Below are positions 24,673-61,951 of a DNA stretch of 64,000 nucleotides, one piece after another (position 1 is the first letter of the stretch; each line of letters opens with the position of its first letter). The position numbers and the translations under genes are program-made. The DNA lies in assembly GCA_043820105.1 (NCBI GenBank), contig JBDREC010000030.1, positions 2,888 through 66,887 on the forward strand, given 5' to 3'. A model generated the notes under the pieces. It had not been told where the DNA came from and did no database searches. It worked only from the letters and a program-made list of their open reading frames with translations. This DNA comes from Pseudomonadota bacterium (lineage in GTDB: Bacteria > Bdellovibrionota_F > JAHFAK01 > JBDREC01).

Positions 24673-26535
24673 TTATAGTTCTCTAGAAATCCTGCTTCCA
24701 AGTTTTGCAGGATCAATATTTCTTCCTCTTTCATTTACATAGATTATTACTTCAGAATTTCCTTGTGCGTATTCAATCACAACAGGAGGATTATAAGCTC
24801 TGTCATCAGCTACAACTGTTATTTCAATATCATTTCTAAGTTTCTGTGTTCTTCTGGCTATAAAAACTGCAAGCTTGATTTCATACATTTGTTCTTTGCT
24901 GAAAGCAAAGTGATCTTGAACCAAGACTTTATGTAAATCAAACAGGTCAATATAGACTCTTGCTGTAGATTTATCTTCTTCAGTAGATGCAGAGGCTAAA
25001 AGTTCATAATAAGCTTCAGCACTTTTAATATCTCTTTTTTTGCTCGTTTCCTTTTGAATAACTGAGGCATATTTATTAGCTGCATTGTTATCTAAATAAG
25101 TTAACTCTAAATAATGATTTGCATAAACTATCCTATTGTCAAGTGTTGTATTTAATACTATACTAGCATACTTATCAGCTGTTGGTCCATTGCCATTTCT
25201 GTATTCATTGTAGTAATTATTAGCTATTTCTGATCCTAAAAAAGTAACTAGTTTATTGTATTTAGAAGCAACTTCAATGCCTGCTTTTTCAGCTAAAGTA
25301 GCATATCTTTTTGCTTCTTCAATATTTCTATCAGCTAATGATGCAAATGTACTTCCTGCTTTAGCTCCAAAATTATTCAGTAGAGCATAATACCTTTTTG
25401 CCATGTTTTCTTCAAAATCAGCAACTATTAAGCTTCTATATTCTTCTGCCTGAGCTACTTCTTTCTTATAAAGAAGATCTACATATTGCTCAGCCATTTC
25501 AGTGTCATTTGTATACATTTCAATATACTGAGCATAGCAATTTTCCATTTTAGCTGAAGAATTAGATTTGATTCTTCCTGAAGCAACACAACCTTGAGCA
25601 ACTAAGTATCTGGTCTGTTCATAAGCAAAAAGTGATTCAACTGCATCCATGCATATTTTCTGGTCTTCAAATGCTTTGTCTTGGCATTTTTCTTTAAATG
25701 CATCTTGAATACCAGCTACTGTGCTGTCATCATGAGTTGTTGTTTCAATATTTTCAATTTCATCTTTATAAAGGTTAGGTAAAGAATCTACCATTGCTAA
25801 AACATATTTTTTAGCACTAGCATTGTCAACTGTCATTGCTAAAGCAGTGTTTCTAATTTTTGTATCATTACCAGCAACATCCTCAAGCCATACAAGACCT
25901 TGATCAATATACCAGCAGTTTTCGTAATAAGCAGAGCTCATCTCTTGTTCACCTTTCGAAACACTCTTAACAACAACTTTTCTTTTTTCGTCTGCTAAGT
26001 TCTTTTTGTCTAGTTTATTTAAAAAAGATATACTTGCTGTGTAATATGTATTGTCATAAACTTTCCCAGGAACTTCACATCTATCTTCATGTCTTTTGTG
26101 CATTCTCTTGCTTTGAGCAAACAACTCTTTTAAAACTGCTTCTTTGCAAGAATCAGTAATATTATTTAGAGCCTTTTCAACAATGACTTTTTCCCAGTCT
26201 ATCATCTCATTGCCCCAATAACCTTCAAGATACATTTCAGCCATTGCCATACAAAGATTGGTTTTGCTTGGACTGTCTTGAATTTTAGTATCAAACAAAT
26301 TATCTGAAAATTCAGTAAAGCTTAGGTCAATTTCTTCAGCCTTTACTTCTTTTGCTTGTTCAGTTCCTTCTATATTTTGTGCTGGTTCAATTAATATATC
26401 AGCGCCACTTACAGGACGATATGAAAATTCATCAGAAACTCTATCATCAGGTATTGGACTAAAAGAAAATAGTGGAAGGCTCAAACTAAGCACTAATATT
26501 AATGTTAATAATAATTTTATTTTTTCTAAATTCAT
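24673..26535 (-). CDS. Secreted helical-repeat (TPR-like) hypothetical protein
   Basis: Signal peptide followed by a 620-aa Y/A/E/K-rich helical sequence with repeated YxxxA/YYxL patterns. Confidence 0.5.
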   Translation of the reverse strand: MNLEKIKLLLTLILVLSLSLPLFSFSPIPDDRVSDEFSYRPVSGADILIEPAQNIEGTEQAKEVKAEEIDLSFTEFSDNLFDTKIQDSPSKTNLCMAMAEMYLEGYWGNEMIDWEKVIVEKALNNITDSCKEAVLKELFAQSKRMHKRHEDRCEVPGKVYDNTYYTASISFLNKLDKKNLADEKRKVVVKSVSKGEQEMSSAYYENCWYIDQGLVWLEDVAGNDTKIRNTALAMTVDNASAKKYVLAMVDSLPNLYKDEIENIETTTHDDSTVAGIQDAFKEKCQDKAFEDQKICMDAVESLFAYEQTRYLVAQGCVASGRIKSNSSAKMENCYAQYIEMYTNDTEMAEQYVDLLYKKEVAQAEEYRSLIVADFEENMAKRYYALLNNFGAKAGSTFASLADRNIEEAKRYATLAEKAGIEVASKYNKLVTFLGSEIANNYYNEYRNGNGPTADKYASIVLNTTLDNRIVYANHYLELTYLDNNAANKYASVIQKETSKKRDIKSAEAYYELLASASTEEDKSTARVYIDLFDLHKVLVQDHFAFSKEQMYEIKLAVFIARRTQKLRNDIEITVVADDRAYNPPVVIEYAQGNSEVIIYVNERGRNIDPAKLGSRISREL

Positions 26536-34265: not shown

Positions 34266-35510
34266 TTATTTTTTGCTAAAGAGCTTTTTAGCAACTTTTT
34301 GGTGATACTCTATAATATGCTTAATATCTCTATCAAAAAGATCAAGACTTTTTGCAAGTTTTTTAAATTGAGATATCGCACTTCTAACTTCATCTATTAT
34401 TGCTTTTTTATCATATTCTGAAATTTGAAAAAGTTTAGCCAGGTGATCAAGTTCTCTTATTGAAGGATTTTTTCCTTCACCTGCAATTGTCATTGAATGT
34501 TCACCACCCATGCCTTGTGAAAACATTAAATCATAAGCTGGAGCAAAAGACCAAGTTCCGTTTTTATTCATTAAAAAAGCAAAGTTTTTCACATGATCAT
34601 CCCTGTTAGAGGACAAAATGTTAAAAACCATTAATCTATAGCACATTTTAACTGATTCAAAATCATGTGTAAGTTTTGAGCAAACCTTTAAAAGGGTTTC
34701 ATAATCAACAGATGGCACCCTAAAATCAGCGTGTATTAAATTTCCAAAAGAGTGAAAATGAATTCTTTGATTTCCTTTTCTGTCAAATCTTTTAGTTCCA
34801 AAATAATAATTATTTTTATTATCTTGAAACAAGTGATATTCTGGAATTATAATGCCAGCAGCTTCTGCCATTTGTGAATAAATATACTCTATTTTTCCAG
34901 CTTCTAAAAAGTCGTTTTCAGATCTAAATTTTATCATCCATGCTTCATAATTTTTTGGTAGATCTGACTCTTTTGAAATTAAATCTTTACCATTAAATCC
35001 TACAAGAATTTTGGGTCTGGCTCCACCTGGAGATCCGCCAGTTCTAAAAAGGATGGGCAAAATATCTTTTTCATTTCCTTTTAAAATTTCAATTGAATTT
35101 TGAGAAAGCTCATATAGATTTACTGTTTCATTCTTTTTAAGTTTTAAATCCATAGCTGGTTCATAAGTTAAAGCCCCTATAGTCCTGTTAGCTACAAATA
35201 ACAATCTATCAATATGAGAAATTTCTCTTAAATCCAAGCCTTGTTTATTAAAAAAACGATCTTGTAATAAAAGCCCCCAACCATCTGGCATAGAATCATT
35301 AAATACACCATGAATATAACCTAAGAATGCTTTTTTACATACCTGAAGTCCCATACGACAATCAAGTTTGAATGGTGAAATGTTTATGTTTTTTGAAAGA
35401 AAATTTGAATCATATTCAAAATAAATTCTTTTTTTATTATCCTGAACAATTTGTCCCAATAGTGTCGAATCATTGGAAGAGGTAGTGTAGAAAACCTTTA
35501 CTTTTTTCAT
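34266..35510 (-). CDS. hipA: HipA-family Ser/Thr kinase toxin
   Basis: The N-terminal HipA coupling domain motif (PDGWGLLLQDRFF) and the catalytic region (DDHVKNFAFLM) are both present. 4-nt overlap with the upstream hipB-like gene. Confidence 0.8.
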   Translation of the reverse strand: MKKVKVFYTTSSNDSTLLGQIVQDNKKRIYFEYDSNFLSKNINISPFKLDCRMGLQVCKKAFLGYIHGVFNDSMPDGWGLLLQDRFFNKQGLDLREISHIDRLLFVANRTIGALTYEPAMDLKLKKNETVNLYELSQNSIEILKGNEKDILPILFRTGGSPGGARPKILVGFNGKDLISKESDLPKNYEAWMIKFRSENDFLEAGKIEYIYSQMAEAAGIIIPEYHLFQDNKNNYYFGTKRFDRKGNQRIHFHSFGNLIHADFRVPSVDYETLLKVCSKLTHDFESVKMCYRLMVFNILSSNRDDHVKNFAFLMNKNGTWSFAPAYDLMFSQGMGGEHSMTIAGEGKNPSIRELDHLAKLFQISEYDKKAIIDEVRSAISQFKKLAKSLDLFDRDIKHIIEYHQKVAKKLFSKK

Positions 35511-38972: not shown

Positions 38973-39965
38973 GTGTCGAAAAAATTAATTGCTATTTCTT
39001 TGAAATCATTAGATGAATTGAGAATGGAAAATATAAGAAAAAAAATTAAATTAAATAAAAAGAATGAATTTGATGTAATTTCTATAGGTTCAAATGCTGT
39101 TGATGCTATTTGTGTTTTACCTCAATTTCCAGAATATAATAAAAAACTGAGAATGAATGATTTTGAAATTGATGGGGGTGGGCAAGCTTCAACAGCAGCT
39201 GTTGCTTGTTCAAAACTTGGCTTAAAAACAAGATATATTGGAAAAGTTGGAGATGATATTTTTGGAAGGTATGCTATTGAAAGACTGATTGCTGAAAATG
39301 TTGATGTTGAGGGGGTACTTGTTAAACAAAATGCTAAAACTCAGTTTGCTGTTATTATGCTTGAAAAAAATATAGGTGAAAGAACTATTATTTGGAATAG
39401 GGATGATGCTTTAGAGCTTCTAGCTTCTGACCTAGATAAAGATATAATTTGTTCAGGAAAAGTTCTGCTAATTGGAAACAGTCATCCTCTGGCTACTAAA
39501 CAGGCGATTGAATGGGCAGAGAAAGAAGATATGCTAATCGTAATGGATGCCGAAAGAGTTGAAGAACATACAAAAGATATTTTGCCTCATGTTGATGTTT
39601 TAATAGGAGACTCAGAATTTTGTAAGTTAATTAGCCAAGAAAAAGATGATAAAGAAGCTTTAATAAAAACTAAAGATTTAGGTCCAAAGATAGTTGGCTC
39701 AACTTTAGGAGAAAACGGATCGATTTTTTATGATGGAAACAATTTTTATACTTCTAAAGCCTTTAACATTAATACTATCGATACAACTGGAGCAGGCGAT
39801 GTCTTTCATGCTGCCTTTATCAGGGCATTGTTTGAAGATTGGAATTTGCAAAAAACTAGCGACTTTTCAAACGCTGTAGCTGCCATTAAATGTACAGATC
39901 TAGGTGGAAGAAAAGCAATTCCAGGTTTCAATGAAGCCTTGAAATTTCTTTCAGAAAACATTTGA
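38973..39965 (+). CDS. PfkB-family carbohydrate/nucleoside kinase (ribokinase-like)
   Basis: Anion-hole motif DTTGAGDVFHAAFIRAL. GTG start in the ORF track. An alternative ATG (MENIRKK) lies at 39024. Confidence 0.75.
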   Translation: MSKKLIAISLKSLDELRMENIRKKIKLNKKNEFDVISIGSNAVDAICVLPQFPEYNKKLRMNDFEIDGGGQASTAAVACSKLGLKTRYIGKVGDDIFGRYAIERLIAENVDVEGVLVKQNAKTQFAVIMLEKNIGERTIIWNRDDALELLASDLDKDIICSGKVLLIGNSHPLATKQAIEWAEKEDMLIVMDAERVEEHTKDILPHVDVLIGDSEFCKLISQEKDDKEALIKTKDLGPKIVGSTLGENGSIFYDGNNFYTSKAFNINTIDTTGAGDVFHAAFIRALFEDWNLQKTSDFSNAVAAIKCTDLGGRKAIPGFNEALKFLSENI

Positions 39966-40008
39966 TATTACTTTTATTTTAATTTAAAATCCCAATCCAA
40001 TTGAACAT

Positions 40009-40126
40009 TACGCCGTACGCTGTACGCCGTACGCTGAAAGTAGTATTCTGTTTTTCTATTTACTGAATACCGAATACTAAATACTGAATACTAATCTTCC
40101 AGCTTACCACTTACAGCTTACAGCTT
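40009..40126. repeat. Three consecutive different heptamer arrays: (CCGTACG/CTGTACG)x4, (TACTGAA)x5, (CTTACCA/CTTACAG)x4
   Basis: Read directly in the spacer upstream of the phosphofructokinase gene. Confidence 0.85.
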
Positions 40127-40142
40127 TAAAAAGAGGTGTTAA

Positions 40143-41195
40143 ATGACAAAAAGAATTGGAATCTTAACAGGTGGAGGTGATTGCCCAGGTTTGAATGCAG
40201 TTATTAGAGCGATTGTTAGAAAAGGAATGTTACTTGGTTACGAAATGGTTGGAGTTATGGAAGGCTGGAGGGGAATGCTTGATAAAAAAACAGTTGTTCT
40301 TACTAGAAATATGATTTCTGGTATTTTACAAAAGGGTGGAACTATCCTTAAAACAACTAGAACTAATCCTTATAATACCGAAGATGGACCTAAGCTAGTT
40401 GCTAAAAACTTTCACGAAATGGGTTTCCATGCTTTAATAGCAATTGGTGGTGAAGATACTCTTGGCGTTGCGTCCAAATTATATGAGCAGGAAAAACTAA
40501 ATGTTGTTGGTGTTCCAAAAACAATTGATAATGACCTGTCAGGAACAGATCAAACCTTTGGTTTTGATACTGCAATCACTGTGGCTACTGATGCCATTGA
40601 CAGATTGCACACAACAGCTGAATCACATCAACGTGTCCTGGTCTGTGAAGTTATGGGCCGTCATGCAGGCTGGATAGCCGCGTATGCTGGCCTTGCTGGT
40701 GGTGCTGACTACATTCTCATTCCAGAAGTTCCGGTTGATGTTAATAAACTTTGTGAATCTATTGCAAAAAGACATAACCTGGGCAAAGACTTTTCAATTA
40801 TTGTTGTCTCAGAAGGCGCTAAATTAAGTGATGAAACATTAGGTGAAAATGGTCTTGTTCTGCAACATGGTAAAAAAGATGCTTTTGGACATGTAATTTT
40901 AGGTGGTATTGGAAAGACAATGTCAGATATAATTCAGGAAAAAACAGGCTATGAAACTAGATACACAATTCTAGGACATATTCAAAGAGGCGGCTCTCCA
41001 ACAGCTTATGACAGAGTGTTGGGAACAAGATATGGAATTCATGCAATGGAACTTGTTCACTCAGGTCAGTTTGGAAAAATGTCAGCTCTAAGAGGAAATG
41101 ACATTGTAGGAGTTGATCTTGCAAAGGCAACAGAAAGACTAAAAACAGTTCCTGTTGAGTTTTTTAGAGACAATATCGAAATCTTTTTTGAATAG
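40143..41195 (+). CDS. pfk: 6-phosphofructokinase, probably pyrophosphate-dependent
   Basis: PfkA-family fold (GILTGGGDCPGLNAVIRA). IGGEDT has Asp at the E. coli Gly104 position. VPKTIDNDL has Lys at the Gly124 position. This is the residue pair associated with PPi use. Confidence 0.8.
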   Translation: MTKRIGILTGGGDCPGLNAVIRAIVRKGMLLGYEMVGVMEGWRGMLDKKTVVLTRNMISGILQKGGTILKTTRTNPYNTEDGPKLVAKNFHEMGFHALIAIGGEDTLGVASKLYEQEKLNVVGVPKTIDNDLSGTDQTFGFDTAITVATDAIDRLHTTAESHQRVLVCEVMGRHAGWIAAYAGLAGGADYILIPEVPVDVNKLCESIAKRHNLGKDFSIIVVSEGAKLSDETLGENGLVLQHGKKDAFGHVILGGIGKTMSDIIQEKTGYETRYTILGHIQRGGSPTAYDRVLGTRYGIHAMELVHSGQFGKMSALRGNDIVGVDLAKATERLKTVPVEFFRDNIEIFFE

Positions 41196-41203
41196 ATAAA
41201 TAT

Positions 41204-41274
41204 GTACAGCGTACAGAGTACAGCGTACAGCGTGATTATCTTTTACGCCGTACGCTGTACGCCGTACGCTGTAC
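41204..41274. terminator. Long imperfect inverted repeat built from CGTACAG heptamers (29-nt arms, 13-nt loop) between pfk and deoB
   Basis: Left arm GTACAGCGTACAGAGTACAGCGTACAGCG. Right arm CGCCGTACGCTGTACGCCGTACGCTGTAC. Function as terminator or attenuator is inferred. Confidence 0.4.
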
Positions 41275-41290
41275 TTTCTAAGGTATTTAT

Positions 41291-42451
41291 ATGTCAAATT
41301 TTAATCGAGTCTGCGTAATTGTCCTGGATTCAGTTGGCGTTGGCGAGCTTCCTGATGCTGAGAAATATGGTGATGTTGGAAGCAATACACTTGGAAATAT
41401 TGCAAAAGTTACAGGTGGATTAAGTTTACCAAACCTCCAAAAAATGGGTTTAGGAAATATTATTGATGTTTTAGGTGTTGATAAATGTGAAAAACCAATT
41501 GCATCTTGGGGAAAAATGGATGAGGCTTCTCCTGGCAAAGATACAACTACAGGGCATTGGGAAATGGCCGGTATTATTCTTGATAAGCCTTTTGTCACTT
41601 ATGAAAACTGCTTTCCACAGGATCTAATTGATCGCTTTGAAGCTGAAGCCGGATATAAATCAATTGGACATTGTCCAGAGTCTGGAACAGAAATTATAAA
41701 ACGGCTTGGCAATCAACATTATGAAACTGGTGAGCTCATTGTTTACACAAGTGCTGATTCAGTTTTCCAAATTGCAGCTCATGAGGAAAAGGTGCCAATT
41801 GATGAACTTTACAGAATTTGTGAAATTGCACGAAAAATTTGTGATGAATATTCGATTGGAAGAGTCATTGCTCGTCCGTTTGTTGGAGAACCTGGGAATT
41901 TCACAAGAACTGCCAATAGAAAAGATTTTTCTGTAACTCCACCTGCAGATACAATGCTTACTTTGGCTCAAAAAGCCGGGCATAAAGTTGTTGGCATCGG
42001 AAAAACTGATTATATTTTTGATTTCCAGGGAACTACTGATTCCTTTCATGGTGCTACAAATGCTGAAAATGTTGAATCTACTATAAAAGCATTGCAGGAA
42101 TTTAAGGAAGGTTTAATTTTTACAAATCTTGTTGATTTTGATATGTTATGGGGACATAGAAATGATCCAGAAGGTTATAAAAAAGGGTTAGAAGAATTTG
42201 ATGTCTTATTACCAAAAATTTTGGACCTTATTACGGATGATACTTTACTTTTTATTACAGCTGACCATGGCTGTGATCCAACAACAGCCAGTACTGATCA
42301 CTCAAGGGAATATGTTCCAATTTTAATGTATAATCCAAAAATGATTCCAGGAACAGATCTTGGAATAAGAGAAACCTTTGCAGATCTAGCAAAAACGGTA
42401 TGTGAAGTTCTGAAGCTCGATGATTTAAAAGTTGGAAAAAGCTTCCTATAG
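41291..42451 (+). CDS. deoB: Phosphopentomutase
   Basis: N-terminal VIVLDSVGVGELPDA and overall alkaline-phosphatase-superfamily pattern. 386 aa. Confidence 0.9.
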   Translation: MSNFNRVCVIVLDSVGVGELPDAEKYGDVGSNTLGNIAKVTGGLSLPNLQKMGLGNIIDVLGVDKCEKPIASWGKMDEASPGKDTTTGHWEMAGIILDKPFVTYENCFPQDLIDRFEAEAGYKSIGHCPESGTEIIKRLGNQHYETGELIVYTSADSVFQIAAHEEKVPIDELYRICEIARKICDEYSIGRVIARPFVGEPGNFTRTANRKDFSVTPPADTMLTLAQKAGHKVVGIGKTDYIFDFQGTTDSFHGATNAENVESTIKALQEFKEGLIFTNLVDFDMLWGHRNDPEGYKKGLEEFDVLLPKILDLITDDTLLFITADHGCDPTTASTDHSREYVPILMYNPKMIPGTDLGIRETFADLAKTVCEVLKLDDLKVGKSFL

Positions 42452-42495
42452 ATAAAACGCCGTACGCTGTACGATTTCCCCAAAAGGAGACTAAT

Positions 42496-43803
42496 TTGAA
42501 CGCCTACGAACTTATTAAAAAGAAAAGAGATGGTTCAGAATTAAATTATGAAGAACTCGAAAGCTTTTTGCAGGCATATTTAAACGGTGATATTAAAGAC
42601 TATCAAATGTCAGCAATGTTAATGGCAATGTTATTAAAAGGGATGTCATTTGAAGAAGTCTCAAATTATACAAAGATCTTAATGAAGTCAGGTGATATTT
42701 ATGACTTTGCAGATCTTGATGGTCCTAAAGTTGATAAGCATTCAACTGGAGGAGTTGGTGACAAGCCTTCAATTGTTTTAGCACCCCTTTTGGCTTCTGT
42801 TGGAGTATATGTGCCAATGGTGTCTGGACGAGGCCTAGGTCATACAGGTGGCACATTAGATAAACTTGAAGCAATTTCTGGTTTTAACACACAAGTATCT
42901 TACGAAGAATTTAAAAACATTCTATATAAAGTTGGCTGTGTTATGGGTGGTCAAACCCAAAACTTTGTGCCTCTTGATAAAATGCTTTATGCTCTCAGAG
43001 ATGTTACAGCTACAGTTGATGACATGAATCTAATTTGTGGTTCTATAATGAGCAAAAAACTATCTGAAGGCATTGATGCTTTAGTTTTAGATGTTAAGAC
43101 AGGAAGTGGTGCCTTTATGGTTGCATATGAAGACTCAAAAGCACTTGCAAAGCTTTGTGTAACAATTGGTAACAATATTGGCAAAAAGGTAAGGGCAATA
43201 ATAACTGATATGAATCAGCCTCTTGGATCTTATGTTGGCAATTCCTGTGAAATTTTTGAGTGTATAAAGTTGCTAAGAGGTGATGAAGTTGCTTCTGACA
43301 TTTATGATCTTACCATGAAACTTGCCCAAGAAATGTATTTATTATCAGGGAAAACAACCTCAAAAGAAGAAGCAGATAAGGTCTTAAAAGAAGCCATTAC
43401 ATCTGGCCGTGCACTTGAAAAATTTGGAGAGCTTATTGAGGCTCATGGTGGAAATCCAAAGGTAATAGAAGATACTAACTTGCTGCCAGATACAGAAAAC
43501 AGGTATGAGCTTAAAGCTCAAAGGTCTGGTTATATTTCTGAAATAAAAACAAATGATATTGGTTTTGCAGGAATTTATCTTGGAGCTGGCAGAAAAACTT
43601 TAGACACTCAAATAGATCATGCTGTAGGCTTTAAGATTAATAAAAAACTAGGTGATAAGATATCAGCTGGTGATACTATCTTAACTATCCATTACAATAA
43701 TGATTCAGGTCTTGGAGCTGCAATAAATAAATTGAATGAGTCCTACATAATTTCAGACAAACATTATGAACCTGGAAAGTTAATTAAAGAAATAGTGGAC
43801 TAA
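42496..43803 (+). CDS. pdp: Pyrimidine-nucleoside (thymidine) phosphorylase
   Basis: Phosphate-binding motif DKHSTGGVGDK. TTG start 7 nt after SD AAGGAG. Confidence 0.9.
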   Translation: MNAYELIKKKRDGSELNYEELESFLQAYLNGDIKDYQMSAMLMAMLLKGMSFEEVSNYTKILMKSGDIYDFADLDGPKVDKHSTGGVGDKPSIVLAPLLASVGVYVPMVSGRGLGHTGGTLDKLEAISGFNTQVSYEEFKNILYKVGCVMGGQTQNFVPLDKMLYALRDVTATVDDMNLICGSIMSKKLSEGIDALVLDVKTGSGAFMVAYEDSKALAKLCVTIGNNIGKKVRAIITDMNQPLGSYVGNSCEIFECIKLLRGDEVASDIYDLTMKLAQEMYLLSGKTTSKEEADKVLKEAITSGRALEKFGELIEAHGGNPKVIEDTNLLPDTENRYELKAQRSGYISEIKTNDIGFAGIYLGAGRKTLDTQIDHAVGFKINKKLGDKISAGDTILTIHYNNDSGLGAAINKLNESYIISDKHYEPGKLIKEIVD

Positions 43804-43980
43804 GTTTATTAATTTAAAATAATTCGCGACATTCAATACACAAGCAGTTAATTGCAACAAAAATATTGCCCCAAATTATCATTTAATTACATGTATTTAA
43901 AAAACGACCAAGCCATTGCCACGTGGCATCATTTTTGCATGCTTATTTTGCTAAATTTATTTTTCATTATAGGGCATTTT

Positions 43981-46900
43981 ATGAGACTAATTACTTTTTC
44001 ACTAAAGATAAAAAACTGTTTTTCTTATTTCTTAATTATAGCTGTTCAATTTTTGTTTATATTAGAATTAAGTTTATATGCTTCTTCAGAAAACTGTATG
44101 AGGCTTTTTTCAGATGAAAGAATTATTTCAACCCAAGATAGCCAGCAAGTAAATAAAGAAACCGCACAACAAGCATCTGCTAACTCACAAAGAAATTCTG
44201 CTAAAGATAAAATCATTTTTTCAATTAATGCTCCAAAGAGTATTTCGAATAAAGTAGAACTAGCTTCTGAAATGTTAGAAAGAGAAATGCAGGCAAATTA
44301 TGGATCATACTCATCAGAGCACCCAGTATTTAAATATGTTGAATCCATTTTAAAGGATATCTTTGCAGGTCTTGATGGAAAGCCTTTCAAGTTAATAGTA
44401 ACGAAAGGATGGGAAGAAGTAAATGCATGTGTTTTAGGCAATGGAACAATTATTTTTTCAGACAGATTACTAACTTTTTGTGAAACTGTAGAAGAGCTTC
44501 ATTTTATTTTAAGTCACGAAGTAATACATGCAAAAAAGCATCTCAAAGAATATGAAGACAAACAGGATACAACAGTTGGAACACTCTTAAAAGACTTCTA
44601 TCAAAACCTGTTTAGGGATAGAATGCAAGAGTATGAAGCAGATATTAGAGGTTTTACAGAAGGGTCGGGTTCAAGTGATTCAATTATTAATCCTTATGGA
44701 GGGATTGTTTTTTTTAATCGCTTAATGGAAATTGAAAGATCTTCTAAAAGCAAATATAATCGCAGCTTTAATTATGGTCTTACTCATGGTAGAAGTGCAG
44801 ATAGGCTTTTAAACCTTCACTTTGCAACAAGATTAGTTGATATTGACAATCTCTCAAGAGATTTGACTGTAATTCCTGATGAAATAAGAGACAAACTAGA
44901 TTTTCGAAGGTCTTTAGAAAAAGAAATATTGAAACCATTGGAAGTTAAATCAGGAGAAGATCTAAGTAATATTATTTCTGCAAGAGAAGCAGCTTTGGAA
45001 AAAGCTAATTTTTATATATTAAAAAATGCAGTGTCCATTTTATATAAGAGATATATGGATAAATATTCATCAAGGAGAACTGCCAGTGATAGTGATAATT
45101 TTTTAGAACCAATTGAAAAAGAGTTTTTACTTAAAACTCTTAATGCCTTTAAAAAAGAAATCGATATAATTTTAGAAGAAAAAAAGGTTCCAGTTTTTTT
45201 AAGGCCCTTATTCCGTGGAATAATAATTGCTTTAAGTTCTGATTTGCCAATAGAAGATGCAAGACCAATGCTTGATGGCTCTGACCCGGAAAATGCATTA
45301 GCCTGTTTTAGAGATTTTTTTGATTATTTTGAAGATAAGGCTGACTACCTTGATTTGCCTGATAATTTGGAAGAATTTGCAAAACTTGATTTGCCTCTTA
45401 CAAATAAACCAAAAGAACTCCTGCAATTTTTGATAAATGAATCTTTAGATGAGGAAATTTTTAGTGATAATCAGGGCAATTTTGACCTTGGACTATATAG
45501 AGACTATGTGCGCAGGCTAAGTGAGTCAACAAAGAAACTTTATGATAAAGTTGGATTAACTAAAGATATAGATTCAAATATGCTTTATGCAGAACTTTTG
45601 CCTTATGCTTTATTAAACTATTCAAGAGATGAAATGAATCAAGTTGCCCAGGATCTTATCTTAGATGTTGGTGAAAATATGAATGATTTTTATGAAGCAG
45701 CCAGAAAGGATGTGGAAATTCCCGAGAAAGTATTAGATAAAGCAAAAAAGAATTTAGAGGAAAGTGATAATAAAAAAGATATATCACCAAAAAGAAAAGA
45801 GTTTTTGGATATAGCAATGGAATACCTTAATAGCTTTAGAGACTTTATAAAGAATCCTCCAGAGGAATTTGAATCAGAATTTATAGCGGAATCTGCTTTT
45901 ATTGAAAATCATAGCAAAACATTTATAAGTAAAATAGATTCATTTGCATGGAAAACTCAAGAAGAAGTAATTATAGCATTAACAAAATTATTCAGAGAAG
46001 ATCTCAATAAAGAAGACATTAGAAAAGTTGTAAAGCTAATATTTGAATGCCCGGACTTTTTCTCAAGTAAAAGATCTTATATTGATGAGAATATGAGTCC
46101 AGTAGGTAAGGCTGCATTTTTAGTTAGAATATTAAGATTCTGTTTTGATTTTGATGAGTTTGGCTCCCTTGTTGGACACAAGGCTTCAATTCCAGATTTT
46201 CTTAACAATGGTTTTAGCTTTACTAGCAGATGGGAATATATTGATAAAAGAACAAATAATGCAGAAATTAAAGAACTCTATAAAATGCTTTTTCATAATA
46301 TAGAATCTATTAATGATCTTAAAGCTACAGAAACAAAAAAAGACGAAGCAATAGAAGATTCATATAATCAAATATATTTTGCTTATTTAGATTACTTGAG
46401 CAAAGAAAAAAATATAGAAGAGTTTAGAATATTATTTGATGATATAATAGATATTGCTCCTAGAAATAGCACTGAGTTTTTAGAATTTCAATTAACAGCA
46501 GCAGCATCTATTTTTGAAAATTATGATTTTGATTTTTCTAATCCTGAGCATTTAGACCTTTATATAAAAGCATGTTCTTTGGTTCCAGATAGTGTACTTG
46601 CTTCGCAGTTAGTTGAAAATGGTCTGGAAAAAGCTTTTGATTATCTGGATAACAAAACACTTGAAAATTATTTATTTCAAGATGAAAGGCTTGCTTTTTT
46701 ATCATTAACAAAAATTAGATCTAGATACATAAATGAGCGTATCCGATCAGTTGAACATCTTGACAGAGCTTTAGAAAAAATCGCCTCAGCCTCTATTCCA
46801 AAACAGCAATCAATACAAGAAAGGGGAGGCAAAGCTTTAATAGGAAATGAAATATTGGATATCTTAATTAATGACCCATTTAATTTTCTCAAAATCGCAA

Positions 46901-48675
46901 TTTTTGAAAGACATTCAGACATGAAGCTTAAAACAGCCTTACTAAATGCCTATCTTTTTTATGTTGAAAATATTGTGCATTTGGGTGGTAACCCTGCAGA
47001 CAGAAGAACAGAAGAAGATTTTATTGGTTTTGCAAGCCATTATGAAAGAATGTTTTCTTTAGATAATGTCACAAAACATAATATTTTAAAAAAATTATTA
47101 ATTGGAGAAAATGGTGTCTTAAGAAATGAAAGTAAGAAGCTAGAAATGCTTGAGCTTATATTGGAAGTTCTAGTCAGAGAAGGAAAAACAGATGCAGAGA
47201 GCAGGCTACGCTCAATATTGAGCATTGGTTTAAAATCCATTGCAATGCAGGCAGATGATATTTCATTATATTTTTTCATAGCAAACTTTTTACATGATCA
47301 AATGTTTATAAGACCTGAAAGTGAAAGCTCTTGGGTTGATGTACTGATTGAATCAGATGTTTTCAAAGATTATAGCAGAGAGTATTACAAAAAAGAAGAA
47401 CTTGAAGAACTTGCTAAACCAATTGCCAATGCTATTAGTAGCTCTCCAAGTGCTAAACATGACAGTTATATTTTTTATGAAGGATCTAGTCCAAATTTAG
47501 ATCTTTTAAGAAGAAATCTTTTTGATAAAGCTTCAAGATACTTGCCAAGCATAGAAGGAGGTGAAAAGAAAAATTACTCGCCAGTTGAATTCATTGTTGA
47601 AGTAGCAAGCAACTTATATGCACCAGGTAAAAGAGCATTACAAATAATGGGACAATATCTAGAGATCCCTGAAGAGTTTGAAGAAGATTTTTCAAAGGTC
47701 TATGATGCAATGGAAGGTCAGTCTAAGTTATCAGGCTATCACACCTTGAAAAGAAACTGGGAAGGTTCAGAAGAAGAGCTTCTTGATTTTGGTTTATATG
47801 AAGGGGGTGGCTCTTTGGTAACAGTGTGGAAGGCAGAAACAAAAAGAAATGGTACTGAAGTTTTAAGAGTGCTAAACCCTAATGTAGAATATCACATGCA
47901 AGAGATATGTGATATTTTAGAAGAAGCTTTTAGGAAGCTAGAAGCAGAATATCCTGATGCAAGACTTGCAGTACTTGCAGTTAATGATATAAGAGAGTGG
48001 ATAAGACGAGATATTAATGACCAAAACTTTTGGGATAATGATGTAATTTTTCATGATTTACACCATGGGTTTTCTGCACCTGGTTCTGGGTTTAGTATTT
48101 ATATCCCAAAGTCTTATGAACCAAGATCTGCTAAAGTAAAAAGAGAAGAATATATTGAGGGCATAAATCTAACAAGATGGCAAGGCACAGAAGAAGAAAG
48201 AAAAGATATAGTAAGTTCAATTGTAGTAAATTTTATTTATCAAATTGGAAATGGCTTAGTTTTATCTGATATTCATCCCGGTAATATTAGAATTATGAAT
48301 GGCAATAAAATTGCCTATCTTGACAGGAATCTTTATATTGAAATCACAGGAGCAGAAAAGGACTTATTATCATCTGTTATAACTGGACAAGAATTAATAA
48401 TTATTGATACTTTTACTTCATATTTACAGGAAATACCTGAAAACAGAAACATTAATGTTCAGGCAATCCTTGAAAATGCAGTCTTAGCATCTTCAAACAT
48501 TAATGACCCAACAAAAAGATTTTTAGATATCCTGGTAAAGGTAAAATCTTCAAATATCAAAGTACCCTTAAAAATTACCTTATTAATTAAAAATGCTTTA
48601 GCTCTAAATAAAATGTCTAAAAAAGCAGGCTTTAATAGTTTAGTTGAAGCAGCAATGTATCCACATACAAGATAG
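43981..48675 (+). CDS. Giant membrane-anchored multidomain protein: M48-like HExxH peptidase domain, long helical region, C-terminal UbiB/ABC1-like atypical kinase domain
   Basis: N-terminal hydrophobic helices. VNACVLGNGTIIFSDRLL...ELHFILSHEVIHAKKH is the M48/M56 pattern. The C-terminus has a Gly-rich loop EGGGSLVTVWKAE, DIHPGNIRI (compare ABC1 DPHPGNI) and a YLDRN DFG-like motif. Start moved to the Met at 43981 (MRLITFSL). Confidence 0.65.
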   Translation: MRLITFSLKIKNCFSYFLIIAVQFLFILELSLYASSENCMRLFSDERIISTQDSQQVNKETAQQASANSQRNSAKDKIIFSINAPKSISNKVELASEMLEREMQANYGSYSSEHPVFKYVESILKDIFAGLDGKPFKLIVTKGWEEVNACVLGNGTIIFSDRLLTFCETVEELHFILSHEVIHAKKHLKEYEDKQDTTVGTLLKDFYQNLFRDRMQEYEADIRGFTEGSGSSDSIINPYGGIVFFNRLMEIERSSKSKYNRSFNYGLTHGRSADRLLNLHFATRLVDIDNLSRDLTVIPDEIRDKLDFRRSLEKEILKPLEVKSGEDLSNIISAREAALEKANFYILKNAVSILYKRYMDKYSSRRTASDSDNFLEPIEKEFLLKTLNAFKKEIDIILEEKKVPVFLRPLFRGIIIALSSDLPIEDARPMLDGSDPENALACFRDFFDYFEDKADYLDLPDNLEEFAKLDLPLTNKPKELLQFLINESLDEEIFSDNQGNFDLGLYRDYVRRLSESTKKLYDKVGLTKDIDSNMLYAELLPYALLNYSRDEMNQVAQDLILDVGENMNDFYEAARKDVEIPEKVLDKAKKNLEESDNKKDISPKRKEFLDIAMEYLNSFRDFIKNPPEEFESEFIAESAFIENHSKTFISKIDSFAWKTQEEVIIALTKLFREDLNKEDIRKVVKLIFECPDFFSSKRSYIDENMSPVGKAAFLVRILRFCFDFDEFGSLVGHKASIPDFLNNGFSFTSRWEYIDKRTNNAEIKELYKMLFHNIESINDLKATETKKDEAIEDSYNQIYFAYLDYLSKEKNIEEFRILFDDIIDIAPRNSTEFLEFQLTAAASIFENYDFDFSNPEHLDLYIKACSLVPDSVLASQLVENGLEKAFDYLDNKTLENYLFQDERLAFLSLTKIRSRYINERIRSVEHLDRALEKIASASIPKQQSIQERGGKALIGNEILDILINDPFNFLKIAIFERHSDMKLKTALLNAYLFYVENIVHLGGNPADRRTEEDFIGFASHYERMFSLDNVTKHNILKKLLIGENGVLRNESKKLEMLELILEVLVREGKTDAESRLRSILSIGLKSIAMQADDISLYFFIANFLHDQMFIRPESESSWVDVLIESDVFKDYSREYYKKEELEELAKPIANAISSSPSAKHDSYIFYEGSSPNLDLLRRNLFDKASRYLPSIEGGEKKNYSPVEFIVEVASNLYAPGKRALQIMGQYLEIPEEFEEDFSKVYDAMEGQSKLSGYHTLKRNWEGSEEELLDFGLYEGGGSLVTVWKAETKRNGTEVLRVLNPNVEYHMQEICDILEEAFRKLEAEYPDARLAVLAVNDIREWIRRDINDQNFWDNDVIFHDLHHGFSAPGSGFSIYIPKSYEPRSAKVKREEYIEGINLTRWQGTEEERKDIVSSIVVNFIYQIGNGLVLSDIHPGNIRIMNGNKIAYLDRNLYIEITGAEKDLLSSVITGQELIIIDTFTSYLQEIPENRNINVQAILENAVLASSNINDPTKRFLDILVKVKSSNIKVPLKITLLIKNALALNKMSKKAGFNSLVEAAMYPHTR

Positions 48676-48696: not shown

Positions 48697-49461
48697 TTAT
48701 TTAGATAAAATTTTGCCTTCTAGATATTTTTCAGTCTTTACAAGCTCACCTTTTTTATTAAAATATTTTAAGGTTCCATTAAGCTTGCCTTTTTCAAAGA
48801 AACCTTTTTCTTTTATTTTACCATTATCATGCCACATGGTGTATTTACCATAAGGCCGGCCATTTTTAAAATATGACTCAACCATCTTTTGGCCATTTTC
48901 ATACCATGCGAGTGACAAACCTTCTCGCTTGGCATTGTTCATTTCATACTCTTCTGATTTTTGACCATTTTTGTGGTACTTGGTAAATTTACCATGTGGT
49001 ATATTATTTATATAATGAACTATTTTTTCAAAACTTTCATTTGGATAATATTCAATATATTTCCCATTGAGTTTGCCATCTATATATGAGATTTGGGTAG
49101 CTTTTTTTCCATTTGAATAATATTGAATTGCATCTCCATTTTTAGCAAAACTACTTCCAGATACTGAAAGTCCATGCTTATATTGAATAACAGGAAGATC
49201 TTTGCCTTTTTCATCATATCTTAATTCTGTGCCCTGTTTTAAACCATGTTCATAATTTGATTCGCATTTGAGTTTTCCATTTTTATGAAACTCATAATAG
49301 GGGCCATGTTTAATTAATTTATTATCTTTATCTTTATAAACACAATAGATAGAATTTTCTCCTTTATCTGCAAAGGTATTTCCATCACATTTAAGCTTTT
49401 GTTCAGTAGAGTAAGCAGAGAAAAGCCATAGGAGGCATATAATTATAATTGATTTTTTCAT
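48697..49461 (-). CDS. Secreted MORN-variant repeat protein (YwqK-like)
   Basis: Signal peptide, then repeated units of ~23 aa (YxxNGKL...G..K.Y.ENG). Confidence 0.6.
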   Translation of the reverse strand: MKKSIIIICLLWLFSAYSTEQKLKCDGNTFADKGENSIYCVYKDKDNKLIKHGPYYEFHKNGKLKCESNYEHGLKQGTELRYDEKGKDLPVIQYKHGLSVSGSSFAKNGDAIQYYSNGKKATQISYIDGKLNGKYIEYYPNESFEKIVHYINNIPHGKFTKYHKNGQKSEEYEMNNAKREGLSLAWYENGQKMVESYFKNGRPYGKYTMWHDNGKIKEKGFFEKGKLNGTLKYFNKKGELVKTEKYLEGKILSK

Positions 49462-49867: not shown

Positions 49868-50419
49868 ATGACTAAAGATGAATTAAGCCCAAAAGAAGGC
49901 GAAGTTATCATAACTGAAGATGGTGTAGATAAAATAGTTAAAGAAGAAGATTATAAGTTACAGGAAAATGAGATAATTGTTACAAGAGGTGGCCATAAAA
50001 GAGTCGTAAAAGATAGAAGAAAAAAACCAACTCCTTTCATTAGCAAATACACTTTTTGGGGAAAAAGAAGGGGTAACAGAAGAGATTCAGATCCTCAAAA
50101 AAATTACTATGTTGATCGTGTTGGAGCTATTTATTGGATAGTAGTTTTTATTATTATCATTTTGTCTGTAAGTGATTCGATTTTTACTTTACACCATTTG
50201 AAATTTGGCTACAAAGAAATTAACCCAGTATTAAATAAATTTTTATTTTCCAATGCATACTTTCTTTTAATAAAATATGCCTTTACTGTAGTTGGGATCT
50301 TAGCTTTAGTTTTACATAAGTTTTTTATCTTTGTAAGAGAACTGATTATATTTATTATTTTATCATATGCAGCTTTAAATATTTATCAGATTTGGTTGTT
50401 CGTTAATCTTCCACAATAG
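49868..50419 (+). CDS. Membrane protein, hypothetical
   Basis: Soluble basic N-terminal half, then 3-4 TM helices. RBS GAGG upstream. Confidence 0.5.
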   Translation: MTKDELSPKEGEVIITEDGVDKIVKEEDYKLQENEIIVTRGGHKRVVKDRRKKPTPFISKYTFWGKRRGNRRDSDPQKNYYVDRVGAIYWIVVFIIIILSVSDSIFTLHHLKFGYKEINPVLNKFLFSNAYFLLIKYAFTVVGILALVLHKFFIFVRELIIFIILSYAALNIYQIWLFVNLPQ

Positions 50420-56003: not shown

Positions 56004-57689
56004 ATGAAACTATTTAAACTAACAAATCTGTTAATTTATCCACTTACCATCTTAATCCTAATCTTAAGTCTTAATCCTGATCTCAATGCACTTACTGAAT
56101 CAGAATTTCTTAATGAGTATAATAATGCCTATACAAGCTTATCAGAATCTCAAAGACAATCATGGATAGAAAGAATCTCAAATAATCACCATGAACTAGA
56201 ACCTGCTCATATTAAAGAAATAATAAAAAGTGATTTTATTGAGGCTGGTAAAAAGCGCAATGACGCAATAGATCTGGATAAGCTACATTTTTTTTATAGC
56301 TTTATAAAAAGCCTGGTTCAAAAGCCACTTGATGATGAACTTCTTGAGGTAATTCTAGGTAAAATAGAATTTGATAATACAAAAATTCAAAGAATAATTG
56401 AAAGCTATTTAAGTGATCTAGATACTTTGAAAAGAAAACCTAAATTAGATGACACTGCCACCAAATTTGTGCCCAAACTTGCTGTTTTATGGTCTGAAGT
56501 ATTATGCATAATATCTTTAAACTCTTATTCAAATTTTAAAGGTAGCTATTATTTTTATTGGATACATAAAATTTATAAAGGTCTAAGCAATACTAAAAAG
56601 GCAATCCCAGCTGAAATAATCACAAAAGTTCATGGATATGCTTTAAGAGCTGCAGTTCAACACATGATTATAAAATCTAGAGATGATTTTCTTAGACCTG
56701 AATATGATAATAAAAGTCCTGAAGCTTTATTTTCTTTATTAAAGGAACTTCTTAATCATCCTAAATATGAACCCTTTAAGCTCGCTGGTACAGCAACATA
56801 TTACTTAAAATTATTAAGTTTTAAAGAATTATTTTATGACCTTGCAAAGCCTAAAAAGACAATTCTTTGTGATTATTTCCTTTTAGAAGTGCTTGAGTAT
56901 AATATTTTTTCAACAGCAATATCTATTATTTACACAAGACATAATGTAAGACCATCACTTGAGCTATCATTACTCATTGCTGAATTGCATTACTTGGATA
57001 TTTTATTAAAGGAATTTGCTATCGAGGTATTAAGTCATGAAAGCTATCAGGATATTCAATATCAAAAAGATAAGCATGCAATAATGGCGGAATATATTAG
57101 AGATAGAGATAAGGCCTTTGGAAGCTATATGACTTTTGATGATAGTGAAAAAGACGCAATAGCATCAAAAAAGACTTTTGATACTGAAGAATATGAAGAT
57201 TTATTAAAAGGACTAAGCTCTTCAATTTCTTTTGAAAAAATGCTAGCAGCTCAAGAACTTTATTTTGCTAAAGATAAATTAAAATCATTAGATATAAATC
57301 AAATAATAAAACTTCATCAAGCACTAGTTGATATTTTAATTGAAGATATTCCTAAAAAAATTGCAGCTCCTGGTTTCATTAATGAAGTAGCAGCCAAAGA
57401 ATATGCAGCCAAAGCTCTTGGTTTAGATGTTTTCACGTCATTGGATGAATCTGGACTTGGAAATATAAGAAAAACAAATTTTTTAAGCTCTGGGGATGCT
57501 TTATTAATAGCGCTTAAGAAATTTTACGGGAAACCTTCTTTCTATGATTTGGGAGATTATATTTTAGAATCCTTAAAACATGATGAGCACAGTTATCAAC
57601 TTAAAATCGCTAAGAGCTTCATTAATAAAGCCAATGGAATTATAGAAGATTCAATCAATCCACGAATATCTTGCATGGCTTTATTTTAA
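56004..57689 (+). CDS. Secreted all-alpha hypothetical protein
   Basis: Signal peptide LLIYPLTILILILSLNPDLNA. 561 aa, no recognised domain. Confidence 0.5.
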   Translation: MKLFKLTNLLIYPLTILILILSLNPDLNALTESEFLNEYNNAYTSLSESQRQSWIERISNNHHELEPAHIKEIIKSDFIEAGKKRNDAIDLDKLHFFYSFIKSLVQKPLDDELLEVILGKIEFDNTKIQRIIESYLSDLDTLKRKPKLDDTATKFVPKLAVLWSEVLCIISLNSYSNFKGSYYFYWIHKIYKGLSNTKKAIPAEIITKVHGYALRAAVQHMIIKSRDDFLRPEYDNKSPEALFSLLKELLNHPKYEPFKLAGTATYYLKLLSFKELFYDLAKPKKTILCDYFLLEVLEYNIFSTAISIIYTRHNVRPSLELSLLIAELHYLDILLKEFAIEVLSHESYQDIQYQKDKHAIMAEYIRDRDKAFGSYMTFDDSEKDAIASKKTFDTEEYEDLLKGLSSSISFEKMLAAQELYFAKDKLKSLDINQIIKLHQALVDILIEDIPKKIAAPGFINEVAAKEYAAKALGLDVFTSLDESGLGNIRKTNFLSSGDALLIALKKFYGKPSFYDLGDYILESLKHDEHSYQLKIAKSFINKANGIIEDSINPRISCMALF

Positions 57690-60631: not shown

Positions 60632-61951
60632 ATGAAAATTAAAAAACTGATTTCAATTTTAGCTGCGTCTTTCTTTTTTCTTTCACTATCTATCATAGTT
60701 TCAGCAAAAGATTTTACTTATTTAGTAGGAGCAGGAAGTGATGCTGGAAAACAGGCTGCCACAGCACAATCGGCCACTTGGGTAAAAAACCTTACAAAAG
60801 CTATAAATAAGGCTGCAAATGATATAAACGCTGGGGGCGATGTCAGTGTGCTTATAAAAGTAGCAGCTGGCGATTACAATGGAGATATGGGCTCCGGAGC
60901 ATATGCTATACCTTTATTAAATAACTTGAATGGAACTTTGAAAATTGAAGGTGGTTATGATTCAAGCTTTGCTAGCAGAAATCCCTTTGCTACACCATCC
61001 AAAATAGTTACAGTTAAAGACAGATCAGCTCCAATTATAACTTTTACAACTAAATCAAAGCTTAAAGCATTGATTGTTGATGGCCTTATTTTTGATTCTG
61101 AGGCTTCCAATGCTTATGATAAAAAATCCAATACTTTACTATATGGCAAATCCTGCTCTCATGTATTTGTAAAATACAATTATCTGGAACTTAATTTACT
61201 GGAATATAAGAATGTTGTTTTCATGAACGCAGCCAACAGAGTTATGGAAACTCTTGTAAGAGCTGCTACTCCTGAGGCAGAGGTTCATTTTTACAACACA
61301 GTTTTTTTAAATAACAGGATTCCCTTAAAACTTGATGGTCCAGGCTATAAAAACAAGATAAATAAAATAATTGTTGATCATTGCAGTTTTATCCTTAACT
61401 GGGCCTACAATCCTGATCCTAACACAGGTCTACCAGCTGCCTTGGAAATTGGCACAAATAACGCTCTTAATGAAATAGTATTAACAAATAATTTGTTTTA
61501 CAGTAATTTTGGAGGTGCTATTATTGCACTTAATGCAAAATCCCCTGGCATGACTATTAATAAAAACAATTTTATTGGAAACGGCCTACTACATGGGGAA
61601 TCTGAACCTTCTGCAGTAGCTATGATAATTTCCGCTGGTGGGAAAAAACAGCCAATTAATGTTGCAACAATAGAAGATGTCAACTTTGTAAATGAAGCAG
61701 AAGGCAATGTTTCTATTTCACCAGGAATTTCATATTCTCTTGGAAATGTAAAAACAGTTGACGCAAATAAAATAAAAGCAAATGAAAACTGGCAAAATGT
61801 AATAAAATCAATACTAGGACTTAATTTAGATGGTGGCAAGGTTTCAGTCAAAGACTATGCGCCTAAACAAAACTATGATCCCAAGTATCCTCCTTTTGCA
61901 ACAGTAACCCCTGCTTTAGCTTATGGTGCTTCGGAAAAACTTGCCAAATAA
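60632..61951 (+). CDS. Secreted hypothetical protein, possibly right-handed beta-helix fold
   Basis: Signal peptide. N/G/T-rich repetitive short strands. 439 aa. Confidence 0.5.
   Translation: MKIKKLISILAASFFFLSLSIIVSAKDFTYLVGAGSDAGKQAATAQSATWVKNLTKAINKAANDINAGGDVSVLIKVAAGDYNGDMGSGAYAIPLLNNLNGTLKIEGGYDSSFASRNPFATPSKIVTVKDRSAPIITFTTKSKLKALIVDGLIFDSEASNAYDKKSNTLLYGKSCSHVFVKYNYLELNLLEYKNVVFMNAANRVMETLVRAATPEAEVHFYNTVFLNNRIPLKLDGPGYKNKINKIIVDHCSFILNWAYNPDPNTGLPAALEIGTNNALNEIVLTNNLFYSNFGGAIIALNAKSPGMTINKNNFIGNGLLHGESEPSAVAMIISAGGKKQPINVATIEDVNFVNEAEGNVSISPGISYSLGNVKTVDANKIKANENWQNVIKSILGLNLDGGKVSVKDYAPKQNYDPKYPPFATVTPALAYGASEKLAK

Follow-up and report, generated by a model that had tools for sequence, protein, structure and literature searches.

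Within the M48 zinc metallopeptidases, latency has been explained by a histidine plug: His-246 of BepA (YfgC) and His-208 of 3C37 act as a fourth zinc ligand that excludes the catalytic water and leaves the enzyme latent (bioRxiv 10.1101/2020.07.07.192476). According to a 2026 paper, such an auto-inhibitory His plug is general across M48 (PMC13655028). In UbiB/ABC1 proteins, a group that includes COQ8A/ADCK3, Escherichia coli UbiB, the plant ABC1K proteins and the mycobacterial Rv3197/MSMEG_1954, an A-rich loop (AAAS) is present, and an A-to-G change in this loop of COQ8A is reported to unlock kinase activity; the KxGQ domain, for its part, reportedly occludes the active site (PMC8956952). Here we describe a gene in a 64,000-nucleotide stretch of contig JBDREC010000030.1 (hereafter the window, in whose numbering positions are given), whose product joins an M48 peptidase domain of the BepA/3C37 type, through about 900 helical residues, to a divergent UbiB/ABC1-fold domain (Table 1). 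This architecture recurs in a large family of proteins, and we regard the description of the architecture and of the family as very nearly certain. Both domains are of known kinds, and the combination of PF01435 with PF03109 is already present in the precomputed annotations of databases. It is the fusion family for which no published description was found: a search of the full-text, kinome and domain-architecture literature, which does not cover all journals, returned no account of an M48–UbiB/ABC1 fusion, in line with a preliminary description of this DNA, made from the letters alone, whose author knew of no such peptidase–kinase combination.

The gene is a single open reading frame (ORF), uninterrupted from its ATG to its stop codon. 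The preliminary description was correct about one long ORF, yet had counted the stop codon and arrived at 1,565 residues instead of 1,564; the motifs it quoted were located where it had put them, HEVIH at residues 179–183, DIHPGN at 1430–1435 and DRN at 1448–1450. The source protein comes from a metagenome-assembled genome (MAG), where its contig measures 69 kb; the name given to it by NCBI is 'MAG: AarF/UbiB family protein [Pseudomonadota bacterium]'. Pfam matches exceeded the curated cut-offs for both halves, with Peptidase_M48 (PF01435) at residues 128–186 (E 6.8e-7, 29.7 bits against a cut-off of 20.3) and ABC1 (PF03109) at residues 1277–1468 (E 8e-14, 51.8 bits against 22.9). At 90% identity, the 1,564-residue protein falls into a cluster that is represented by a hypothetical protein of 49 residues.

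Taken by the preliminary description as a singular oddity, the protein proved instead to belong to a family that numbers at least 175 cluster representatives. An exhaustive profile search, for which residues 1–1200 of the window protein were aligned with the matching parts of two relatives, left 175 cluster representatives at E<=1e-30, out of 571 matches at E<=1e-10 and 12,105 at E<=1e-3. When the best 150 representatives were scanned with our own hidden Markov models of the peptidase and kinase regions, both domains were found in 137 of them, always in the same order, and all conservation counts below refer to these 137 two-domain members. The start-to-start spacing from peptidase to kinase had a median of 1,078 residues (range 864–1,298, n=137), and the median length of family members is 1,496 residues. 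Thirteen representatives carried the peptidase region only and two the kinase region only; they are mostly short proteins and are presumed to be contig-end fragments. Pfam matched both PF01435 and PF03109 in all 19 members tested with it, the best M48 E-value being 4.7e-15. Fast word-index searches badly understate the abundance of the M48–UbiB fusion family: three runs gave 2, 5 and 2 matches, against the at least 175 of the exhaustive search, and the relatives they found were two full-length proteins at 29% identity, each with both Pfam domains, plus three kinase fragments. Pairwise identity among representatives is 17–28%. A scan of genome contigs with patterns from a three-sequence alignment added one locus (L001) from an uncultured gammaproteobacterium. 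A scan of IMG/VR viral contigs with two kinase-motif patterns, using the full-length query, confirmed no viral relative. Named sources number only four, namely Pseudomonadota, Gammaproteobacteria, Omnitrophota and one groundwater metagenome; the family loci range in GC content from 0.32 to 0.55 and carry one copy of the gene each.

This recurrence bears directly on a trivial explanation. Since the sequence comes from a MAG, the ORF might be an assembly chimera or a frameshift fusion of two unrelated genes, which the preliminary description had raised as a condition that could undo its claim. The two domains recur, with their order and spacing kept, in 137 of the 150 representatives, from many samples, which excludes a chimera; moreover, the middle region is conserved too, with invariant positions throughout the alignments, and GC content and GC skew are even along the whole gene. 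The probability that we attach to an artefact is accordingly negligible.

Seventeen of the representatives are giants of 1,800–6,307 residues that embed the entire module. Their additional domains include HATPase_c (GHKL) with HEAT, an SF1 helicase, methyltransferases, CheR, APH and tRNA_edit. Giants with the complete module include P0047, P0049, P0061, P0076, P0092 and P0160 (3,013–6,307 residues), the last of which derives from a Candidatus Omnitrophota MAG and is named a GNAT family acetyltransferase in its source; at locus L012, a family gene of 5,166 residues comes right after one that encodes at least 3,489 residues. Generic multi-enzyme giant proteins have been reported for Omnitrophota, and the domain mix of the giants seen here is alike (bioRxiv 10.64898/2026.06.07.730766).

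By sequence, and by its M48 (gluzincin) fold, the N-terminal domain is a complete M48 zinc peptidase domain of the BepA type, in which all catalytic residues and the switch His are present. The two zinc ligands and the catalytic base of HExxH are conserved as H 137/137, E 136/137 and H 137/137. The third-ligand Glu (E217) is found in 137/137 members, together with D221 (136/137) and R214 (136/137), within the sequence RMQEYEAD. In the comparison of profiles with the PDB, this EYEAD block is matched by ExxAD in both 3c37 and BepA. The HG...DR motif is equally strict (H 137/137, G 137/137, R 135/137): HMMER aligned the family's 'ltHGksaDR' with 'LTHPLPESR' of BepA, which places H269 at the position of BepA His-246. 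A single-sequence search of the PDB with the window protein found nothing, while a four-sequence profile of the N-terminal region matched 3c37, the Geobacter 'Peptidase, M48 family' (E 5.6e-18), and E. coli BepA, 6ait (E 2.5e-14), with Ste24 and HtpX only marginal. An AlphaFold (AF2) model of residues 60–1200, built on an alignment of 52 sequences, reached a mean predicted local distance difference test score (pLDDT) of 74 and a predicted TM-score of 0.71, with pLDDT of about 90 across residues ~90–600; Foldseek searches with it returned BepA first (E 1.3e-4, probability 1.00), and 3c37 gave TM-scores (TMt) of 0.56–0.61.

The resemblance to BepA extends beyond the active site, since here as well a helical-repeat domain follows the protease. 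There are nevertheless clear differences. BepA is periplasmic, whereas most fusion members have no signal peptide; the family has HG...DR in place of HP....R; its helical region is far longer than the TPR domain of BepA and has a UbiB-like domain attached; and there is no evidence tying the fusion family to the BAM complex or to LptD. The preliminary description had spoken of an M48/M56-type metalloprotease, of which the M48 part stands and the M56 part does not, as neither an M56 nor a transpeptidase model appeared among the Pfam matches up to E = 1.

The helical nature of the ~900 residues that follow, already claimed in the preliminary description, is borne out by the predicted models, in which DSSP assigns the middle region as all-helical. 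Its first ~300 residues pack confidently on the peptidase in the model, the central ~190 are of low confidence and the last ~350 are again confident. Several conserved motifs precede the kinase-like domain by a short distance (LLxGxxGxL at 1039–1047, LYFA at 1096–1099 and PPxxxxxW at 1111–1118). The Foldseek alignment to 6ait spans 511–536 columns, covering both the protease and the TPR domain of BepA, at TMt 0.35–0.37 and a root-mean-square deviation of ~16 Å; other matches of the middle are generic TPR/HEAT solenoids (Ctr9, Ski3, HUWE1). No significant Pfam family, TPR included, was found in residues 301–1199, and sequence profiles of this region compared with solved structures matched designed helical repeats only. 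The region may serve as a scaffold that binds a substrate or a partner.

The C-terminal domain has the fold of the UbiB/ABC1 kinases, as the preliminary description had proposed: besides the Pfam ABC1 match, the five top Foldseek matches of a model of residues 1000–1564 (core pLDDT 81–94) are COQ8A/ADCK3 structures, including 7udp, 4ped and 5i35 (E 7e-12 to 1.5e-10, TMt 0.62–0.67). These alignments extend over 383–400 columns against chains of 369–387 residues and include the N-terminal extension; they are followed by MSMEG_1954 and Rv3197, and then by Rio2 and PknB. The link with COQ8A comes from the fold search alone, as the kinase sequence profile gave nothing significant against the PDB. 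The domain is not that of a UbiB orthologue, which is excluded by a score of 39 bits against the cut-off of 487.55 for the UbiB equivalog TIGR01982 (NCBIfam); beyond the family, the kinase profile next matches canonical UbiB proteins, at only E 8e-10. The kinase-like domain is a deep and distinct branch, seen in our searches only in the fusion.

Alignment with two canonical UbiB proteins (P0011 and P0012) shows which motifs are kept. The catalytic loop is retained in modified form, LSDIHPGN for the canonical HADPHPGN (D 125 and N 10, G 135, N 133 of 137), and so are the metal-binding Asn and the Asp at the DFG position (135/137), the latter followed by an Arg in 131/137 members, so that DR[N] stands for DFG. 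Where UbiB has its Ala-rich loop (AS(A)S in this alignment), the family has GGGS, conserved at 136, 132, 137 and 132 of 137; this Gly-rich loop, the DIHPGN loop and the DFG-like DRN had all been recognised in the preliminary description. Of the literal KxGQ motif of UbiB only the Gln is kept, the canonical FIKLGQ being replaced by VRFLQ in the family and RALQ in the window protein (R 134/137, Q 137/137, Leu for Gly), while GQ[ST]K (G 130, Q 135, K 117 plus R 13 of 137) is an addition of the family. At the β3 position, the canonical VKV is LRV in the window protein, which has Arg for the invariant Lys, as in 22% of members (K 102, R 30, A 3 of 137). The full combination of the window protein (R, L, D, H, N, D) is shared by 4 representatives. 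Across the family, the metal and ATP ligands are almost universal, and roughly 30% of members depart from the usual phosphotransfer residues. The C-terminal transmembrane helices of UbiB/ABC1 proteins have no counterpart in the family.

Table 1. Coordinates of the fusion gene and of its domains and motifs in the window
Feature	Residues	Position	Strand	Basis
Whole gene, 1,564 codons plus stop		43981..48675	+	NCBI MFH1727813.1
Sole hydrophobic segment, FSYFLIIAVQFLFILELSL	14-32	44020..44076	+	Kyte-Doolittle scan
M48 zinc metallopeptidase domain, BepA/3C37 type	~100-300	44278..44880	+	Pfam, PDB profile, Foldseek
HEVIH, two zinc ligands and catalytic base	H179, E180, H183	44515..44529	+	Motif, conservation
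EYEAD, third zinc ligand Glu, M48 R..E..AD motif	E217-D221	44629..44643	+	Alignment, conservation
HGRSADR, counterpart of M48 'THPxxxxR'	H269-R275	44785..44805	+	HMMER alignment, conservation
Alpha-helical repeat scaffold, ~900 residues	301-1199	44881..47577	+	AF2 DSSP, Foldseek
Divergent UbiB/ABC1-fold domain with UbiB-specific N-terminal extension	~1200-1564	47578..48672	+	Pfam, Foldseek
RALQ, family RxLQ, at UbiB KxGQ	1218-1221	47632..47643	+	Alignment, conservation
GQSK, family-specific, no UbiB counterpart	1246-1249	47716..47727	+	Conservation
GGGS nucleotide-binding loop, at UbiB A-rich loop (AAAS)		47803..47814	+	Alignment, conservation
Arg at beta3 'VAIK' Lys position	R1296	47866..47868	+	Alignment
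DIHPGN catalytic loop, UbiB HxDxHPGN equivalent	D1430-N1435	48268..48285	+	Alignment, conservation
DRN, DFG-equivalent metal-binding Asp, then near-invariant Arg	D1448-N1450	48322..48330	+	Conservation

N-terminal transmembrane helices, and hence a membrane protein, had been proposed for the window protein, yet the hydropathy scan gave a single N-terminal segment, preceded by R2, K9 and K11 and followed by LYASS, which looks like a signal peptide or signal anchor; apart from a buried strand of the kinase, nothing else in the protein scored as transmembrane, and a polytopic membrane protein was rejected. Among the 120 non-giant family members, 112 have no hydrophobic segment at all. A signal-like N-terminal segment as the only hydrophobic stretch occurs in 4 of the 120, the window protein included, one of them with a lipobox-like LPAGC (P0126, locus L010). 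By this measure the family is basically soluble and the window copy atypical; unlike most of its relatives, it may be exported or membrane-tethered. The choice of start codon matters here. The ATG at 43981 is the first to be equipped with a Shine–Dalgarno-like AGGG, 6 nucleotides upstream, whereas the in-frame alternatives farther upstream (TTG 43852, ATG 43891 and ATG 43939) have none; a start at ATG 43939 would add a second hydrophobic stretch (LILLNLFFIIG), and one at Met40 (44098) would remove the signal-like segment entirely. A terminator-like hairpin lies at 43912–43927, between the upstream run of genes and the target ATG, and promoter and terminator scans around the gene gave results at chance level.

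The same observations bear on the BlaR1-style signal transducer suggested in the preliminary description, in which a signal from outside would lead to proteolysis coupled to phosphorylation. BlaR1/MecR1 proteins do resemble the fusion in having a zinc HExxH peptidase within a multi-domain, regulatory-looking protein, and the window copy combines such a peptidase with a kinase-like domain in one chain that also has one N-terminal hydrophobic segment. However, BlaR1 is polytopic, has an extracellular penicillin-binding sensor and lacks a kinase, while the fusion has neither a polytopic membrane domain nor a sensor domain. Its peptidase best matches the soluble or periplasmic BepA/3C37 proteins, without an M56 match in Pfam, and the absence of any hydrophobic segment from the great majority of relatives points the same way. 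Membership of M56/BlaR1 was rejected on these grounds, and a transmembrane transducer of this kind is contradicted by topology, domain content and peptidase type, which makes it extremely improbable.

How the two catalytic domains work together is much less certain than the architecture itself. The reading that we favour is a self-contained nucleotide-gated protease in one chain. The scaffold would hold or present a protein, either a substrate or a partner. The M48 site, with H269 on the zinc, would be auto-inhibited at rest as in BepA, and this H269-plugged state would be released or set as the UbiB-like domain binds ATP, hydrolyses it or phosphorylates itself. Both catalytic centres are strongly constrained, that of the protease more so than the residues of phosphotransfer, and near-universal metal and ATP ligands with looser phosphotransfer residues fit a nucleotide-dependent regulatory role beside a strictly conserved protease. 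The gene is also a stand-alone unit, with one copy per locus and no conserved neighbours. Such a nucleotide-gated, auto-inhibited zinc endopeptidase is nonetheless a possibility that we consider more doubtful than probable, and the explanation as a whole, in which architecture and family are blended with gating, comes close to an even balance without quite attaining it.

Several points weigh against gating. The physical coupling of kinase and peptidase is conjectural, given that the models cover residues 60–1200 and 1000–1564 separately, and strict co-occurrence would fit equally well with two enzymes that act on a common target in parallel. The invariant GGGS loop favours genuine phosphotransfer over gating alone, because the A-to-G loop change in COQ8A is what unlocks kinase activity (PMC8956952). 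Some homologues adjoin toxin–antitoxin pairs, recombinases or a TrwB-like ATPase, and some members have Sec or lipoprotein-like signals, which together hint that the role is an accessory or exported one and not that of a cytoplasmic housekeeping protein. Finally, the signal-like N-terminus of the window copy would put an ATP-dependent domain outside the cytoplasm, a placement that the gating model leaves unexplained.

The genomic surroundings were compared in 11 distinct contexts, the window plus 10 places with homologues (L001, L002, L003, which is a short contig with no neighbours, L004/5 and L006–L012), and no neighbouring gene is conserved across them. Directly upstream of the target in the window (38973–43803, + strand) lie genes for a PfkB-family sugar kinase, an ATP-dependent phosphofructokinase, phosphopentomutase (deoB) and pyrimidine-nucleoside phosphorylase; phosphofructokinase and PfkB genes likewise precede the family gene in L010, which is probably a coincidence. 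Downstream, a MORN_2-repeat protein is encoded convergently at 48697–49461 (− strand), 22 bp from the target stop codon, and is followed by a DUF5658 protein at 49868–50419 (+ strand); neither gene has a counterpart near the homologues. Other loci have housekeeping surroundings (Mur ligase, Ddl and RecX; FBPase and a sigma factor) or accessory ones, comprising PemK/ParE pairs, AAA_14/DUF4143 ATPases (twice) and a TrwB-like ATPase with a serine recombinase. Thus, in L010 (8001–15454) the family gene for P0126 overlaps by 4 nucleotides a gene for an APH-kinase-fold protein of 834 residues and is preceded by PemK and ParE toxin–antitoxin pairs and an AAA_14/DUF4143 ATPase. An ATPase of the same type adjoins P0001 in L002 (6109–7392). 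In L011 (7535–12468), P0016, from a groundwater metagenome, adjoins a TrwB/DUF87-type ATPase and a serine recombinase, a setting that suggests a mobile element.

These accessory surroundings bring to mind a protein of biological conflict, whose protease and kinase would attack or sense foreign targets. It might serve in anti-phage defence, or else be an effector or toxin that is delivered into the cell of a host, prey or competitor. The members are large, mutually divergent to the extent given above and drawn from genomes of widely differing GC content in at least two phyla, Pseudomonadota/Gammaproteobacteria and Omnitrophota. A Sec- or lipoprotein-like signal is present in a few of them, the window copy among these, and export of an ATP-dependent domain is easiest to understand if the protein is destined for another cell. 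In the giants the module is fused to helicase, methyltransferase, GHKL ATPase and APH domains, but such fusions say little about function because they resemble the generic Omnitrophota giants; and the window itself is rich in orphan ORFs and has a HipA toxin. On the other hand, PADLOC-DB 2.0 gave no match for the window protein or for four of five relatives, the fifth having only a weak generic kinase match (PD-T4-6, E 3.4e-4), and the viral contigs, as noted, yielded no confirmed relative. Most members lack any hydrophobic or export signal, the architecture and both active sites are rigid, unlike those of modular, fast-shuffling effectors, and housekeeping genes surround the gene in the window and at several other loci. 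We consider a conflict role less likely than not, yet with an appreciable probability.

A second alternative connects the fusion with lipids. In the core proteome of plastoglobules and of the Synechocystis cyanoglobule, ABC1K kinases occur in one compartment with an M48 metalloprotease, PGM48 (sll1280) (PMC12223511, PMC8956952), and UbiB proteins are described as lipid-associated. The fusion could then be a module of lipid or prenylquinone homeostasis, with the UbiB-like domain sensing or handling a prenyl lipid and the M48 domain turning over associated proteins, and would serve as a Rosetta stone for ABC1K and PGM48/sll1280. Lipid-related neighbours are found at two loci only: in L001 the family gene overlaps at its start with a DAGK_cat lipid-kinase gene, and in L008 the neighbours include an SRPBCC (Polyketide_cyc2) protein and a squalene-hopene cyclase. 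Hints from 2 of 11 contexts are weak, however, and the family has neither membrane anchors nor, by Pfam, an amphipathic or lipid-binding domain. Its kinase is also far from UbiB proper, by the TIGR01982 score and canonical UbiB E-value given above. The plastoglobule and cyanoglobule components are separate proteins on a lipid droplet, in contrast to the single soluble chain of the fusion family. A lipid function is in our judgement improbable.

A few other features of the window are of note. A HipA-like toxin kinase (34266–35510, − strand; HipA_C E 1.6e-46, plus Couple_hipA) is a second gene with the protein-kinase fold, about 8.5 kb upstream of the target. Sizeable orphan ORFs of 357–781 residues, with no Pfam match at E<=1e-3 or 1e-5, are numerous (among them 2217–4562, 24673–26535, 56004–57689, 60632–61951 and 10175–11248) and are interspersed with prfA, prmC, aroA, murJ, lolA, htpG, hslU and thiC; at 31% GC, they suggest a poorly sampled, possibly host-associated lineage. 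A protein of 488 residues encoded at 23151–24617 (− strand) matches the spore photoproduct lyase family (SPL, E 1.7e-23), in a genome annotated as Pseudomonadota.

Returning to the nucleotide-gated protease that we favour, the fusion touches on two problems of current interest. The biochemical role of the UbiB/ABC1 'kinases' (COQ8, UbiB and the plant ABC1Ks) is still debated, and the release of M48 enzymes from His-plug auto-inhibition has been worked out mainly for BepA so far. The fusion family is unlikely to overturn established ideas in either field. Since the protein is annotated only as 'AarF/UbiB family protein', its protease half, and with it the whole family, has been overlooked. Yet at least 175 clusters that join the two active sites, both strictly conserved, are a strong natural hint that these activities can be coupled. 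The family has a Gly-rich loop where canonical UbiB has a kinase-suppressing Ala-rich loop, and its mostly soluble nature should make these proteins easier to study than their membrane-bound relatives. There is also a slim chance that the fusion acts as a Rosetta stone, revealing UbiB/ABC1 and M48 to be a general functional pair in which ATP use of the UbiB type controls an auto-inhibited M48 enzyme, or the reverse. If that were true, a soluble, single-chain version with a Gly-rich loop would provide a tractable system for elucidating the role of UbiB.

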